64,000 nt of DNA. It comes from Fidelibacterota bacterium. Its GTDB lineage: Bacteria > Fidelibacterota > SORT01. Where the stretch lies: contig JACZYG010000014.1 in NCBI GenBank assembly GCA_022571215.1, positions 3,884 through 67,883 on the forward strand, written 5' to 3'. The notes under the pieces were generated by a model that made no database searches, was not told the DNA's origin, and saw only the letters and a program-made list of their open reading frames with translations. The position numbers were made by a program, and so were the translations under genes. The first letter of the stretch is position 1. Every line of letters begins with the position of its first letter. This document shows positions 1,103 through 64,000 of the stretch, one piece after another.

Positions 1103-1522
1103 CACACACCCCGTCTTTTGTCCCGAACAATCGGGACAAAATCCACCCCTCTTGATAGAGGGGAACTTTTAGTCCTCTCCCCTTGAGGGGAGTACTCCGT
1201 AGGAGGGAGGGGTGTAATCGTTCGGTACAGTAAAATAATAAAAGATTTCAACCATCACACTCCCTCCCGATAAATCGGGATAAACTCACCCCTCTTTTTA
1301 GAGGGGAACTTTTTGCATCCAAGATGCGATACTCCAAAAGGATTGGCATTACAATCCCAAATCCGCACCTCTCCGTCTTTGCGAGACCTGATTTATCAGG
1401 TCAAAGCAATCTCAAATCTATCCAACACGGCAACTATGGGATTGCTTCGTCGTGACTAAGTCACTCCTCGCAAAGACACTGTCAAAATTATCAACGCGGT
1501 CAGGATCAATCCTGACTCGCAC
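1103..1522. repeat. Repeat island: family B (CCCCTC-loop-GAGGGG) hairpins plus family A and C copies
   Basis: CCCCTCTTGATAGAGGGG, CTCCCCTTGAGGGGAG and similar; homologous to 20432-21198 and 61944-62544. Confidence 0.85.
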
Positions 1523-20407: not shown

Positions 20408-21198
20408 CCCTAACCCGCACGAGTCCGATAATTCCCCTCTATCAAGAGGGGTAGCCGATCCTTTAGAAATCTTAAAGCAAAAGGCTGGGGTGTGTAATAG
20501 AGATATATGATAAAAATTTGACGCGTTTTGCAACTGACAACTTCTGACACACCCCGTCTTTTATCCCGAACAATCGAGATAAAATCCTCCGTAGGAGTTC
20601 CTTCGGAACACCCCTCTTGATAGAGGGGAATTACGCGCATCAGAGATGCGATGTGCGCGAGTCATCCCGAAGCTTCGGGATGACACACCGCATAACCACA
20701 TTATAAAGGCGTCAGGACAAGTCCTGACTGCCACTAAATACTTTGTCTTTGCGAGGAATCCGTCAGCTGACGGATGACGCGGCAATCTCATGCTGATAAA
20801 ATTAATCTGAGATTGCTTCGTCGTTTCCTCCGCATTCTTCGGAGATCACTCCTCGCAATGACTGCGAGGTGCGGTCAGGGCCAGCCCGACATTGCTCTGG
20901 TGGGCAATCTCAAAATTTAAATTAACAGATTAGCCTTTACACACCCCGTCTTAGATAATCCGCGATTATCTAATCCACCCCTCTTAATTAGAGGGGAACA
21001 TAAGGATTTTATTCTTTGATTTTAAACAACCCCTTTGTCCCCTCCTTAGGAAGGAGGGGATGAAAAGTTCCTCTCCCCTTGAGGGGAGTGTCCGGCTTAT
21101 GCCGGACGAGGGGTGTAATCGTACGATGATAATTATTCTGGAGAGAAGATCAGAATCACACCCTCCGTCACTCCATGACACCTCCCTCGAGGGAGGAG
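20408..21198. repeat. Dense island of family A, B and C palindromes
   Basis: More than ten hairpins homologous to those at 27-220, 1103-1522 and 61820-62544. Confidence 0.85.
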
Positions 21199-21237: not shown

Positions 21238-21660
21238 TCAGTCATCATCCTTGACATCACCCCGGAGGCGTTTGACCCTGCCTCTATTTTTCTTATTTTT
21301 CAGTCGTTTTTCTATCGAGGCGCGGGTCGGTTTGGTTTTACGGCGAGGTTTCGGCTTATGAAGCGCTTTAAGGATGAGAGCTTTAAGTCGTTTCAGCGCT
21401 TCCTCGCGGTTTTGCGATTGTGAACGGGAAGTTCTTGCGTCAAGAACGATAATTCCGTCTGAAGTGACCCTCTTGCCTGCTAATTTCAGCAATTTCGGTT
21501 TTATCTCTTCAGGAATGGAGGTGGAGTTCCGCAGGTCGAATCGAAGTTGAACCGCAGACGCTACCTTGTTGACGTTTTGTCCGCCCGGGCCGGATGAGCG
21601 CACGAAGTCGAAGTGGAGCTCGGAGGATCTGATAGTTATATTTGAGTTTATTTCGAGCAT
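21238..21660 (-). CDS. arfB: Alternative ribosome rescue factor ArfB (YaeJ)
   Basis: SSGPGGQNVNKV, RSQSQNR, basic C-terminal tail. Confidence 0.95.
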   Translation of the reverse strand: MLEINSNITIRSSELHFDFVRSSGPGGQNVNKVASAVQLRFDLRNSTSIPEEIKPKLLKLAGKRVTSDGIIVLDARTSRSQSQNREEALKRLKALILKALHKPKPRRKTKPTRASIEKRLKNKKNRGRVKRLRGDVKDDD

Positions 21661-28126: not shown

Positions 28127-28348
28127 TTAAGGAGTGAATTTAAAAATAAAAAACTTATCGGAAATTACATAGTTGATTTCTTTGCCCCTAAATTAAATTT
28201 GATTATCGAAATTGATTGTATTACGCATGGTTTTAAGATTGAAGAAGATAAAGTTATACAAGAATTTCTTGAATCATTATCATTGACTGTGTTAAGATTC
28301 AGCGATTCAGATGTGAGGAAAAATTTGAACGGTGTGATTCATCCTTAG
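28127..28348 (+). pseudogene. Decayed DUF559 nuclease gene
   Basis: Translates to ..EFKNKKLIGNYIVDFFAPKLNLIIEIDCITH..LRFSDSDVRKNLNGV*, closely similar to 62065-62421; no start codon. Confidence 0.85.
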
Positions 28349-28376
28349 GGATAAGATTTGTGTAAATCGAACAATT

Positions 28377-28418
28377 ACACCCTCCGTCACTTCGTGACAC
28401 CTCCCTTCAGGGAGGAGG
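28377..28418 (+). repeat. Family B right-end palindrome
   Basis: ACACCCTCCGTCACTTCGTGACACCTCCCTTCAGGGAGGAG, homologous to 21158-21198. Confidence 0.85.
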
Positions 28419-60592: not shown

Positions 60593-61780
60593 ATGGTCTA
60601 TATCCTATTAGGACATCTGAAAGGCAGCCTGAAACGGTTGCCTTTTCTTTTGCTTACGCTGTTCTTCAGCCACTTGAGCACGCTCGCCCAAAATACTGAA
60701 CGAGAACCGATAAAAGCTTTTTGGGTCATAAGAGACAGGCTCACTACAAAGAAGAGCGTCGAGGAAATCGTGGAGACGGCGAAAAATCATGGATTCAACC
60801 ATCTGTTCGCGCAGGTCAGAGGCAGGGGTGACGCATATTACAACAGCGAAATAGTGATGAGATCTCCTCTTATACAGGGCAGAAAATTTAATCCCCTCAA
60901 AGAACTGCTCACGCTGGCGCACAAGGAGAATATCAAGGTGCACGCCTGGGTGAACGTTTACCTGCTCTGGAGCTCGGAGAAGAAACCTAAATCCAAAAAC
61001 CATCTGCTCAATCAGCATCCGGAGTGGACAGCGCGAGCTTATGGCGATGTAGTAGACGCTAAAAAGACACACCGGCAATTCAAACTGCAAGGCACGGAAG
61101 GTGTTTACCTGTCGCCCGGACATCCGGAAGTTTCGAAATACCTCTTAGCGGTATTCAGAGAACTTATTGAAGAATACGACATTGACGGACTGCATCTCGA
61201 CTATGTACGATATCCGGGTCCTGAATACGGTTTCAACCAGGCGGCTATGAACAGTTTTAGAGAAGAGACGGGCGTTGACCCGGAGATTTTCATAGAAAAC
61301 GGCGAAGAAATCTCCAATATAGTCGGCAAGGAGAGCGTCGAAGCGTTCCAGCGTCAGTGGAAAAACTTCAAACTTCGAAGCATATCCAATCTCGTTATCA
61401 GCACAAGAAATCTGATAAAAGCATCGGGTAAGAAGCTGCTCCTCACGGCAGCCGTAAAACCTAATCCCGTCTCCGCGCGCGAACAGAACTATCAAAACTG
61501 GGTCAGATGGGTCATGGGAGGTACGCTCGACTATGCCGTGCCGATGAACTATAACGCCGATATCAGGGAATTCACTCAGAACTTGGAATCAATACTGACG
61601 CTCGTGCCACCGGGAAAATTGATCATGGGTATCGGCGCGTTCAACCAAAACCACTTCGACGTCGAAAGCAAGATCTACAAATCTAAATCAGAAGGGATCA
61701 GAGATTTCATCTTCTTCTCATATAACGAGCTGCACAATGAAGAAAAATATGTCAAGGCGATACGAAGGGCGTTGGAGTAA
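60593..61780 (+). CDS. Secreted glycosyl hydrolase-like 10 (DUF187-type) protein
   Basis: QVRGRGDAYY, VHAW, DGLHLDYVRYP, PMNY. Confidence 0.8.
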   Translation: MVYILLGHLKGSLKRLPFLLLTLFFSHLSTLAQNTEREPIKAFWVIRDRLTTKKSVEEIVETAKNHGFNHLFAQVRGRGDAYYNSEIVMRSPLIQGRKFNPLKELLTLAHKENIKVHAWVNVYLLWSSEKKPKSKNHLLNQHPEWTARAYGDVVDAKKTHRQFKLQGTEGVYLSPGHPEVSKYLLAVFRELIEEYDIDGLHLDYVRYPGPEYGFNQAAMNSFREETGVDPEIFIENGEEISNIVGKESVEAFQRQWKNFKLRSISNLVISTRNLIKASGKKLLLTAAVKPNPVSAREQNYQNWVRWVMGGTLDYAVPMNYNADIREFTQNLESILTLVPPGKLIMGIGAFNQNHFDVESKIYKSKSEGIRDFIFFSYNELHNEEKYVKAIRRALE

Positions 61781-61819
61781 GCAGCTCATAGCTGATAGTG
61801 AAAGTAATTTTATGATGAT

Positions 61820-61888
61820 GTGCGGCTCAGAGCAAACCCTGACCGCACAATATATTTGATTTAACGTCGGGGCAAACCCCAACTGCCA
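61820..61888. repeat. Two family C hairpins
   Basis: GTGCGG..CCCTGACCGCAC; CGTCGGGG..CCCCAACTGCC. Confidence 0.7.
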
Positions 61889-61923
61889 TGCAATTCTAAT
61901 TTTGGATTATATTTTATGATCAT
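61861..61923 (-). pseudogene. Truncated tandem copy of the DUF559 gene (5' end only)
   Basis: MIIKYNPKLEL with the same upstream sequence as the intact gene, offset by 498 bp. Confidence 0.8.
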
Positions 61924-61943
61924 AATATCGTTCCATTTGTGAT

Positions 61944-62052
61944 ATCACACCCCTCGTCCGGCAGCTGCCGGACACTCCCCTCAAGGGGAGAGGGTCCCAT
62001 ATCTCCTCCCTAGAGGGAGGTGTCATCCCGATTTATCGGGAGAGGGTGTCAT
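61944..62052. repeat. Family B doublet downstream of the DUF559 gene
   Basis: Four hairpins; direct repeat of 62442-62544. Confidence 0.9.
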
Positions 62053-62064
62053 CGTCGAGAATTA

Positions 62065-62421
62065 TCATTGATTCTTATCAATCCAATCTTTGATTGATAT
62101 GAGCACCGCATCCAAATTATGCTTCACATCCGAATCGCTAAATCTTAATAGTGTCAAAGATAAAGATTGAAGGAAATCTTGTCTAATATTATCACTGTCT
62201 ATTTTAAAGTCATGGGTAATTCCGTCAATTTCGATAATCAAATTCAACTTCGGAGCAAAGAAATCAACTATATAATTTCCGATAGGTTTTTGTCTCTTAA
62301 AAGCATATCCTATCAGTTTTTTATTTTTTAGTTCATTCCATAAATAAATCTCTGTTTTAGTTGAATTCTTCCTAAGTTTGCGGGCAATTAGTTTTAGTTT
62401 TGGATTATATTTGATAATCAT
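62065..62421 (-). CDS. DUF559 / Vsr-like endonuclease domain protein
   Basis: ARKLRKNSTKTE..LW, FKRQKPIGNYIVDF, IEIDG..H, LRF; AT-rich. Confidence 0.9.
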   Translation of the reverse strand: MIIKYNPKLKLIARKLRKNSTKTEIYLWNELKNKKLIGYAFKRQKPIGNYIVDFFAPKLNLIIEIDGITHDFKIDSDNIRQDFLQSLSLTLLRFSDSDVKHNLDAVLISIKDWIDKNQ

Positions 62422-62441
62422 AATATCGTTCCTTTTGTGAT

Positions 62442-62544
62442 ATCACACCCCTCGTCCACCAAATGGCGGACACTCCCCTCAAGGGGAGAGGATTCCCTGT
62501 CTCCTCCCTCGAGGGAGGTGTCACAGTGTGACGGAGGGTGTGAT
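62442..62544. repeat. Family B doublet upstream of the DUF559 gene
   Basis: ATCACACCC..GGGTGTGAT termini with four internal hairpins. Confidence 0.9.
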
Positions 62545-62985
62545 TGTTGTAATGCTTTATGTTTCATTTTAAATGAAAATATAATGACCAAACTATAATG
62601 ATTGAAAATATTGAGAAAAGCCATTCAATATAGGATTCATAAAGAGCAACCCGAAAACTAATTTCCTCATTTTTCTCCAATGACCGTTCTTATTTTAAAT
62701 TAGCAGCATAATTTATAAGATTATGGATTATAATTCCGGTAAATAAAAAACTAATTAAAAGATTAAACTCCGATGTCTTTTCATTCTTATCAATAAAATA
62801 AGGAGTAAATTGCAGGGAGTAATATGCAAATATTCCTATAAAAATTCTTCAACGGTTATTGACGTAAGATAGAATACCTGGATATATACGACCTTTCAAA
62901 ATTAACTTATTCATACTAAGCTCAAGTTTATCAGACAATTGCAGCCTCCAATCAGGTTTTGTTTATCATACCATACCATTGAAAA

Positions 62986-63588
62986 TCAACCATCAAAGCT
63001 TTCCCGTCCTTCGGTGAAGAGGATGACGCGGCGGAACTTCGTGCCGGGGGGGTCTTCGATATAGTTTGCCCAGCATTCCATCTCGCTGTTACGGCGGTGA
63101 ATCCGCTTACGTTGTTTGAGGCAGCGCTTGACGGTCTCGAACTCAAAATCCTGAAGCGGGATCTTTCCCTCACGGTTCATCAGCGGGGAGATTATGCGCA
63201 CCGTCATGTGGTAGTTATCAAAGATCGTCAGGACGGCATCCCGGTGTTTCAGGCATTGACGGGCTATGACCTCATATGAGCAGTGCGGAAATTCCTCTTT
63301 TAGAGCATCAAGCGGTTCGTATGCGAGTCCGCGGAGTTCGGCGGGGTCAAGGAGCAGGTCTGCCGCGAAGAGATTCGCTTCCTCCTCCTGCTGCCATGTC
63401 TGTTCCGATTCGTTGAGGTGGTTGTGAACATAATGACCGATCTCATGCGCGATAGTGAAATTTTGGCGTTCGGGACGGTCGTTCTTGTTTATGAGGATGA
63501 GTTTCAACCCGCTCCGGACGGAGACACAGCCGCGAAGGCGGTCGTCAAGGTCAACACTGAGAAGAGTGAAGCCGTACTCTTCGGCTAT
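62986..63588 (-). CDS. ImmA/IrrE-family zinc metallopeptidase (start uncertain: ATA 63588 or TTG 63507)
   Basis: RQNFTIAHEIGH and EEEANLFAADLL motifs. Confidence 0.85.
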   Translation of the reverse strand: MAEEYGFTLLSVDLDDRLRGCVSVRSGLKLILINKNDRPERQNFTIAHEIGHYVHNHLNESEQTWQQEEEANLFAADLLLDPAELRGLAYEPLDALKEEFPHCSYEVIARQCLKHRDAVLTIFDNYHMTVRIISPLMNREGKIPLQDFEFETVKRCLKQRKRIHRRNSEMECWANYIEDPPGTKFRRVILFTEGRESFDG

Positions 63589-64000
63589 TTTTTGCCCGAA
63601 GTCCGTTCTTCTTTAAGGTTTTCTCTGAACGCGTGGAGCATGTTACGCAGACTCCTTTCGGAAACCTTCTCCAGTTTGCTTCCCCTGCTGTAGAGACTCA
63701 GCAAAAATGCCTTGTCATCTTCGTCTATGTTTTCCGTTTTCATATTCTTTAAAATATATTCTTCAACAGAGAGGGGATTACGAGCGTATGACGGGTCATG
63801 TTGAATGTTATTATCGCTTAATTCGGTTGTCAGGTTGTCGGCGAATCCTTTTATGAGAAACTGATCGGGATTAATTGTCACACCAACCCATTTGCTTACA
63901 AGCAGGGCGATAGTCGAGAGGGTATTCGGTTTCATCGCCCTTCCGAGCACCCATTCGCTGACCGTTTGATTTGTTACGCCGATTTCCTTCGCAAAAACTT
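63585..64000 (-). CDS. XRE/Cro-C1 HTH regulator; 5' end lies beyond the window
   Basis: Frame is open to the edge: VFAKEIGVTNQTVSEWVLG helix-turn-helix. Confidence 0.75.
   Translation of the reverse strand, partial: VFAKEIGVTNQTVSEWVLGRAMKPNTLSTIALLVSKWVGVTINPDQFLIKGFADNLTTELSDNNIQHDPSYARNPLSVEEYILKNMKTENIDEDDKAFLLSLYSRGSKLEKVSERSLRNMLHAFRENLKEERTSGKK

Follow-up and report, generated by a model that had tools for sequence, protein, structure and literature searches.

REP/REPIN systems consist of short structured repeats tied to RAYT enzymes, which are HUH Y1 transposases. The triplex motif called BoxC, PIT or TM(ECO) was reportedly the subject of work by Hoyne and Maher in 2000, as cited by Holder. 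This class II intrastrand triplex motif was first named BoxC in E. coli, with PIT elements and TM(ECO) as further names; the repeats have been known since the 1990s, form triplexes in vitro and mark unstable sites, and in the available part of the source they are linked to genetic instability with no mobility genes, transposase or integrase remnants found nearby, the word "endonuclease" being absent from the main text (Holder 2015, PMC4666352). SsnA is a small GIY-YIG nuclease whose gene stands between hairpin repeats; it cleaves these repeats in single-stranded form, and in the available part of that paper its authors liken their NTS-ssnA-NTS system to REP-RAYT (Chenal et al. 2025, PMC11893778). 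We describe here a DUF559 nuclease gene enclosed by repeats of the BoxC/PIT type in a 64,000-nucleotide stretch of a Fidelibacterota genome (the window, contig C55:3884-67883), together with the association of DUF559 genes and such motifs across many phyla. Coordinates are window positions unless a contig is named.

Organization of the DUF559 locus

The source genome (G000) comprises 2.56 Mb in 71 contigs with 42.7% G+C, and its ribosomal protein L17 is 93% identical to the L17 of a Marinimicrobia single-cell genome. The locus contains the following features:

62501-62545, minus strand: R1, upstream R element, family D (detector match C55:66386-66423, window 62503-62540)
62442-62490, minus strand: L1, L element, family C (detector match 62447-62488)
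62065-62421, minus strand: intact DUF559 gene (Vsr-like PD-(D/E)xK), 118 amino acids (aa), start MIIKYNPKL (open reading frame and Pfam PF04480)
62003-62050, minus strand: R2, R element past the stop codon, family D, linker hairpin TCCCGATAAATCGGGA (detector match 62006-62047)
61944-61992, minus strand: L2, second L element, family C, linker hairpin GTCCGGCAG-CTGCCGGAC (detector match 61949-61990)
61894-61921, minus strand: stub of a second DUF559 gene, ATG plus 8 codons (MIMIKYNPKL-like), then stop
60593-61780, plus strand: GHL10-family glycosidase-like gene, one flank of the cassette
62986-63507 and 63585-63998, minus strand: M78-peptidase/helix-turn-helix pair, the other flank

The intact gene lies between direct repeats (61894-62025 and 62392-62523) that are 89% identical with a period of 498 nt, and a gapped alignment extends them to ~170 nt. 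On the gene strand one reads first R (62545-62501) and L (62490-62442), next the gene, then R (62050-62003), L (61992-61944) and the stub (61921-61894). The locus is therefore a two-unit tandem array of cassettes, each built of L, a ribosome-binding site, the 118-aa DUF559 gene and R, in which one unit is intact and the other is reduced to L and nine codons. An earlier note on this DNA had described an intact gene between direct repeats and the order R, L-gene-R, L-truncated gene, and was right in both. It had also placed the truncation at a family C hairpin, which is not where it falls: the stub stops at 61894, and the GGGGCAAACCCC hairpin (~61869-61880) lies ~14 nt further on.

The DUF559 reading frame matches Pfam PF04480 with E 6.4e-31 and 106.9 bits (cut-off 20.6) over profile positions 3-106 of 109. 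DUF559 and MTES_1575 were the only profiles matched, with no match to HUH Y1 or GIY-YIG, and the solved DUF559 structure PDB 3HRL aligns with residues 21-110 (E 1.1e-15). Across 81 aligned DUF559 sequences, D53 (99%) and E64, D66 and H70 (100%) are kept, and all are present in the 118-aa protein. We take these to be the counterparts of the Vsr catalytic residues, and the predicted active-site residues are intact. VSR, DUF559 and DUF2726 have been grouped in one fold clade with a homing endonuclease, with the remark "No HGT observed" (HGT, horizontal gene transfer) in the part of the source available (Steczkiewicz 2012, PMC3424549).

On the gene strand, R1 reads ACACCCTC, the hairpin GTCAC-ACT-GTGAC and the palindrome CCTCCCTCGAGGGAGG, while L1 reads CTCCCCT-TG-AGGGGAG, the hairpin GTCCGCCA-TT-TGGTGGAC and a third block, GAGGGGTGT. 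From L1 to the ATG there are ~23 nt, including the ribosome-binding-like word AAGGAA. The two ~170-nt copies differ mainly in their two internal hairpins, where the sequence has changed and the pairing has been retained: the L linker pairs GTCCGGCAG with CTGCCGGAC in one copy and GTCCGCCA with TGGTGGAC in the other, and the R linker pairs TCCCGAT with ATCGGGA versus GTCAC with GTGAC. The L2 unit, linker hairpin included, recurs at C33:20534 and C33:93095. The L word has four matches in the window and the R word five, compared to none for either in 100 shuffles. In the AT-rich stretch at 62546-62990, tblastn detected no third decayed cassette (best E 0.39). A different hairpin repeat (GTGCGG...CAGGG/CCCTGACCGCAC) stands at 61820-61850 after the GHL10-like gene and also at ~20869 and 19118; a related hairpin follows the GHL10-like gene in the relative G004 as well.

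L and R compared to BoxC/PIT repeats

L and R are inverted relative to each other and share one plan: a pyrimidine (Y) block, a loop of 0-2 nt, a complementary purine (R) block completing a hairpin, a linker hairpin and a G/T block. This last block repeats the purine block in mirror order, T standing in for A, as in AGGGGAG followed by GAGGGGT in L and AGGGAGG followed by GGAGGGT in R. This is the grammar of BoxC/PIT class II, in which a Y block, short loop and R block (CTCCCCT-TG-AGGGGAG in L, CCTCCCT-N(0-2)-AGGGAGG in R) are followed by a mirror third block with G for G and T or A for A. L and R depart from the published search in their linker, a 12-22 nt hairpin of variable sequence in place of loops of 1-6 nt; family A motifs of the same genome, with 3-5 nt linkers, fall within that definition. 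A mirror block cannot form Watson-Crick pairs with its partner and would suit a purine-motif third strand (G.G-C, T.A-T). By their sequence, L and R are members of the BoxC/PIT "class II potential intrastrand triplex" repeat class with an unusual hairpin linker.

A detector with strict settings (perfect stems of at least 6 nt, loop of at most 8, linker of at most 50) yielded 111 motif matches in G000. These fall into five families whose third blocks match family by family, with purine/third blocks AAGGAGGGG/GGGGTGGTT, AGAGGGG/GGGGTGT, AGGGGAG/GAGGGGT, AGGGAGG/GGAGGGT and AAGGGGG/GGGGGAT. A mirror third block was present on 99 of 300 palindrome sides in the genome, whereas exchanging blocks of the same length gave 21.9 on average and 33 at most, and among 292 non-symmetric blocks the mirror form occurred 98 times and the direct-repeat form 16 times. 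The paired palindromes of the earlier note are thus real structured ends that do not arise by chance, though they belong to the BoxC/PIT type of intrastrand triplex motif and are not a new type of palindrome. Some linker hairpins are common to several families: TGTCCGGCAGCTGCCGGAC occurs in family C of G000 and family B of two other genomes (G076, G148), and TCCCGATTTATCGGGA in both families B and D of G000. This sharing suggests that modules are exchanged between elements.

Association of DUF559 genes with the motif

A first sample consisted of 80 loci encoding relatives of the 118-aa protein (46-60% identity) from Patescibacteria, Nanoarchaeia, Bacteroidota, Balneolaceae, Nitrospira, Jettenia, Thermotogota, Cloacimonadota and others. 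Within 100 nt of the gene, an upstream motif in the L (+) orientation was found at 44 loci and a downstream motif in the R (-) orientation at 61, with one or the other at 72; six loci had no strict motif at this distance. The motifs sit from a few to ~35 nt from the DUF559 start and stop codons. Counted by gene ends, 109 of 156 DUF559 ends had a motif within 100 nt, versus 14 of 215 ends of other open reading frames (ORFs) in the same loci, the enrichment that had been put forward as a check on the idea. DUF559-motif pairing is tight and oriented and extends across many phyla.

This contrast, the short distances and preferred orientation, and the span from archaea to Bacteroidota all argue against the explanation that the motifs spread or arise by processes of the host, for example replication slippage or recombination where non-B DNA is unstable, and pile up in dispensable DNA where DUF559 is an accessory gene with no enzymatic link to them. 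So does the source genome, in which 32 of 2178 crudely called ORFs end within 100 nt of a motif on at least one side and only three are flanked at both ends, two of these being DUF559 genes and the third an RF-1-domain gene by a motif cluster. Such an origin would account for the position of most motifs, which lie far from DUF559 genes (7 of the 111 matches adjoin the four DUF559 genes of G000), for motifs in genomes lacking a DUF559 match, and for a gene-free single motif that is present or absent past a tRNA gene in genomes of the same genus. It would also agree with the link to instability and the lack of mobility genes near E. coli copies in the available part of Holder 2015 (PMC4666352). 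On balance, we consider a passenger role for DUF559 unlikely.

A second sample comprised 30 of the best-scoring PF04480 matches among 201 genomes of the phylum, nine of them from one genus, and 25 of the 30 loci had a strict motif within 100 nt. Imperfect motifs missed by the detector were present at three of the other five. In one clade both ends are turned round and are still mutually inverted. A rule that the third block always faces the gene was tried and discarded as not universal, given the flipped ends in this sample.

Within the phylum, DUF559 is present in 75 of the 201 genomes. It occurs in 25 of the 30 genomes with a family-B motif versus 50 of the 171 without, an odds ratio of 12.1 whose significance the p-value overstates since kin are not independent; a backwards control pattern for family B matched none of the 201 genomes. 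Of the 10 family-B motifs in the closed genome G029, 7 are no more than ~400 nt away from its two DUF559 genes, and in G027 all six lie on the contig of its sole DUF559 gene. DUF559 domains were also noted inside open frames of 1000-1500 aa (G154:C375, G076:C105, G010:C16, G049:C48, G061:C87, G114:C16 and G156:C3), which may represent fusions of the helicase type or insertions that keep the frame; the DUF559 domain of the long frame in G156 has a family-B motif directly beside it.

In E. coli K-12, a decayed R-type motif overlaps the stop codon of the DUF559 gene ycjD, and an intact BoxC lies ~200 nt downstream. This neighborhood fits the pairing and is suggestive, being that of a single gene. 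A partial duplicate of the ycjD 3' end lies ~100-200 nt past the stop, between ycjD and BoxC, and mirrors the 5' stub of the window.

Other copies in the window and genome

Three further sites in the window carry the same kinds of element:

28136-28342, plus strand: decayed DUF559 gene without its N-terminal third, between tRNA genes (C55:32019-32225; PF04480 E 2.3e-14, profile positions 34-102 only)
28379-28415, plus strand: R element, family D, just past the decayed gene, with no L upstream (detector)
21073-21196, plus strand: gene-less pair of L (family C), a 44-nt AT-rich spacer and R (family D)
1175-1305, plus strand: diverged gene-less pair of an L-like unit, a spacer and an R-like unit of another family

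The earlier note had reported the same ends beside a decayed gene at 28127-28418; the gene remnant and its R are there, and no L stands upstream. Its gene-less pairs at 21070 and 1173 were both recovered, the latter more diverged.

G000 has four DUF559 matches, all of which adjoin motifs. The copy on contig C67 stands between two family-B motifs, inverted as they are at the 62065-62421 gene, and the copy on C27 has family-A motifs upstream. The three intact DUF559 proteins are 45-64% identical to one another. Apart from these genes, the genome holds ~100 gene-less motif copies, including eight gene-less L-spacer-R pairs with spacers of 41-46 nt and ends of the form GTGAT...ATCAC.

Filled and empty sites in related genomes

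Presence/absence polymorphism, another check that had been proposed, was found in close relatives at all three sites with an intact gene. At the site of the 62065-62421 gene, defined by the synteny L17, GHL10, cassette and M78, the GHL10 and M78 genes of the relative G005 are 150 nt apart and enclose no gene or motif, G003 carries a single DUF559 gene (69% identity) accompanied by motifs, and G004 has two full tandem DUF559 genes, 80% and 56% identical to the 62065-62421 gene; G002 has different genes downstream. Since a full second gene in G004 occupies the place of the stub, the stub in G000 represents a lost second unit. The tandem genes of G004 share 55% protein and 67% DNA identity, and the R-L junctions preceding them have 88% identity over 160 nt, the differences falling mostly within the first 25 nt. 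The junctions are more alike than the genes, indicating that the repeats are homogenized independently of the genes.

The C67 site is empty in G001 and G002, which belong to the same genus as G000 and in which the stop of a PBP4-like gene is joined directly to a tRNA promoter region. It is also empty in G004, and G003 has L only. Aligned to G001 and G002, G000 carries a clean 530-nt insert composed of L, gene and R. No target-site duplication was found at this filled/empty junction, the only one cleanly aligned. At the C27 site, G002 and G005 are empty, and the gene is present in G003 and G004 at 65% and 80% identity. The cassette is a discrete unit, present or absent at syntenic sites, whether by gain or by loss.

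In G001 and G002 (loci L134 and L137), a single family-B motif with a long loop hairpin lies downstream of the tRNA and is absent at the C67 site of G000, so that gene-less motifs are also gained or lost between close relatives. In the intergenic regions L085 (G005) and L136 (G004), sites that hold DUF559 cassettes in relatives are filled by a long inverted repeat from another family, with TGTCATTGCGAG...CTCGCAATGACA on either side of a GAGATTGC core.

Filled and empty alleles at three loci and a clean indel without target duplication are consistent with a free-standing homing endonuclease whose target would be the gene-less L-spacer-R pair, the gene copying into empty pairs through double-strand-break repair and the repeats not being made by the enzyme. 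The eight pairs, with their common ends and a spacer nearly fixed at 41-46 nt, fit such a target, as do the many more pairs in metagenome contigs with 34-39 letters between arms, and the Vsr-like fold includes a known homing endonuclease (clade 58 with 3r3p; available part of Steczkiewicz 2012, PMC3424549). Homing would have to be very inefficient, however, given gene-less pairs beside intact genes in one genome; the paralogues are too diverged to be fresh copies, and ~80 single motifs and five families would be left without explanation. We therefore regard homing as quite unlikely.

The same sites bear on whether DUF559 is instead a domesticated, SsnA-like enzyme, that is, an endonuclease specific for a site or structure in single-stranded DNA, which the host would use to cut incoming or replicating DNA at motifs, with the gene-flanking copies as relics or regulators. 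The C27-site gene looks vertically kept in three genera, and E. coli has retained ycjD, next to which stand a decayed motif and an intact BoxC. SsnA shares this architecture, and domestication is proposed for it in the available part of its authors' paper (PMC11893778). Empty sites in close relatives run counter to this, as do the patchy distribution within the phylum (75 of 201 genomes) and frequent decay, represented by the stub and the truncated copy in the window and by stops inside 11 among the DUF559 matches listed. Domestication appears to us very unlikely.

Sequencing-run contigs and transcription

Reads were represented by short contigs from 4 of 23 listed runs. Three DNA runs from three studies contain pieces of the locus with 0-2 differences (61704-61976, 62013-62302, 62198-62493 and 62464-63020). 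The contigs break inside motifs and none spans the whole cassette. Depth in motif bins is 20-100 times that of neighboring bins, indicating that these arms are present at numerous loci, or in numerous organisms, of those samples. The joints with 34-39 letters between an R arm and an L arm correspond to gene-less pairs and include at least eight different spacers.

The RNA-library contigs do not cover the DUF559 gene; one 140-nt piece with 20 differences comes from a relative. The spacer of the 21073-21196 pair is present in a contig of this library at a mean word depth of 1362, far above its neighbors. This pair lies directly 3' of an RF-1-domain gene (21238-21660, minus strand) and may be transcribed as its 3' untranslated region, with DNA carry-over in the library also possible.

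Transcription would be central if L were a 5' leader structure and R a 3' stabilizer or terminator of the DUF559 mRNA, with gene-less copies serving other genes likewise. L must be transcribed, since it separates the ribosome-binding site from any upstream promoter, the linker hairpins keep their pairing through compensatory changes, and the strands of L and R fold well, with z-scores of -3.5 to -4.6 in a folding model limited to Watson-Crick pairs. The depth of the gene-less spacer in the RNA library points the same way, subject to carry-over. Yet no T-run follows R, and a scan of 61700-63000 gave no terminators and eight promoter-like sites (4.7 +/- 2.0 in shuffles), which is uninformative. 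Rfam at gathering thresholds identified five tRNAs in the whole window and nothing at the L and R elements. A mirror third block has no Watson-Crick role, and the available part of Holder 2015 states in its introduction that purine-motif triplexes do not form in RNA and cites earlier work in which PIT elements had no promoter or terminator activity (PMC4666352). An RNA-level function as the explanation of these elements is highly improbable.

A proposed repeat-nuclease system

We infer, with roughly even confidence, that the locus belongs to a selfish system of repeat plus nuclease resembling REP-RAYT and NTS-SsnA, in which a PD-(D/E)xK nuclease would act on the repeats. The third G/T block could lie on the Y-R hairpin as a third strand through G.G-C and T.A-T triplets. 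The DUF559 nuclease would recognize the folded motif in single-stranded or supercoiled DNA and nick it, and repair or recombination started at the nick could copy motifs elsewhere and, now and then, the gene between two motifs. The same repair or recombination would homogenize motif copies within a genome. The gene-bearing unit would then be the autonomous form, and the single motifs and L-45 nt-R pairs its non-autonomous relatives.

A number of observations weigh against this proposal. The paralogues of G000, at 45-64% identity, reveal no recent gene copying in that genome. The C27 genes look vertically inherited with losses, as their 65-80% identity is similar to that of their neighbors, and presence or absence at this site may reflect deletions and not insertions. 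In the second sample, the polarity seen at the 62065-62421 gene occurs at only 13 of 30 loci, the upstream motif is flipped at 14, and 5 of 30 loci have no strict motif within 100 nt; gene 1 of G004 has its downstream motif in direct orientation. Five of the 30 family-B genomes have no DUF559 match, two of them 93% and 98% complete. The nearest relatives of the 62065-62421 gene, which has C/D ends, bear family-B ends, and inspection of the 80 loci of the first sample for the co-phylogeny suggested earlier gave no clear rule linking nuclease clade to motif family, with host taxon confounding. The earlier note had also called for empty alleles and R-L circle junctions in reads; neither was seen in the run contigs, in which an R-L circle is indistinguishable from gene-less pairs elsewhere.

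That note had named the cassette an undescribed mobile element. A discrete unit does exist, present or absent at syntenic sites and with ends that occur ~100 times without the gene, although its repeats are of a class already known; it is the partnership of DUF559 with the repeat that appears to be undescribed. Supplementary site lists aside, we found no published link between the DUF559 family and BoxC/PIT repeats in the literature searched, and none is made in the available parts of PMC4666352, PMC11893778, PMC3424549 and PMC1189080.

BoxC/PIT is an orphan repeat, known for decades without an assigned enzyme or origin, and DUF559 is an orphan enzyme, a large, widely distributed family whose structure is solved and whose function is not known; a link between them would give each a testable role, would bring a new enzyme chemistry to the few partnerships of repeat and nuclease, and may explain how the repeats spread. 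Judging by SsnA, it might also yield a nuclease specific for an unusual DNA structure. More tentatively, and with somewhat less than even confidence, we propose that DUF559 proteins are structure-specific hairpin/triplex nucleases, the enzyme partner that would make, spread and homogenize BoxC/PIT across most bacterial phyla and some archaea. If so, REP-RAYT and NTS-SsnA would be joined by a third class of selfish system built of repeat and nuclease, this one with PD-(D/E)xK chemistry, and E. coli, with ycjD and 23 copies of BoxC, would offer a laboratory model ready for use.

Comparison with known systems

Among nucleases of the same fold clade, Vsr repairs T/G mismatches beside a methylase gene, whereas no methylase gene is adjacent here, and the Vsr-like homing endonuclease I-Bth0305I differs in sitting in an intron. 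YcjD and 3HRL are DUF559 relatives with no known function. With regard to miniature inverted-repeat transposable elements and insertion sequences, which have terminal inverted repeats and a target-site duplication, L and R are inverted relative to each other, and no duplication is seen at C67, the one filled/empty junction that aligned cleanly.

The repeats share with BoxC/PIT the three-block grammar of class II (Y block, complementary R block and G/T-rich mirror block) and an intergenic, dispersed occurrence in many phyla. They differ in the 12-22 nt hairpin linker, which lies outside the published 1-6 nt loops, and in the DUF559 gene between two motifs, whereas published copies have no associated enzyme or mobility gene in the available part of the source (PMC4666352).

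The earlier note's likeness to a REP-type system tied to a non-HUH enzyme is apt, and the gene-repeat pairing is general across phyla. As in REP/REPIN-RAYT systems, a small nuclease-type gene is bracketed by a short structured repeat in inverted orientation, and tens to hundreds of copies of this repeat, single and in inverted pairs, are dispersed over the genome concerned. Here, in contrast, the enzyme is of the Vsr-like PD-(D/E)xK type and not HUH Y1, the repeat has a triplex-type third block, and a genome holds several diverged gene copies, each with its own motif family.

NTS/SRM-SsnA differs in nuclease superfamily and repeat, as the DUF559 protein is not GIY-YIG, and cleavage of the repeat by SsnA is demonstrated in the available part of its description, whereas for the DUF559 protein it would be a predicted activity. 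The two are alike in having a single-domain nuclease of ~100-150 aa, its gene flanked on both sides by dispersed hairpin repeats, and a pairing conserved over wide phylogenetic distance.

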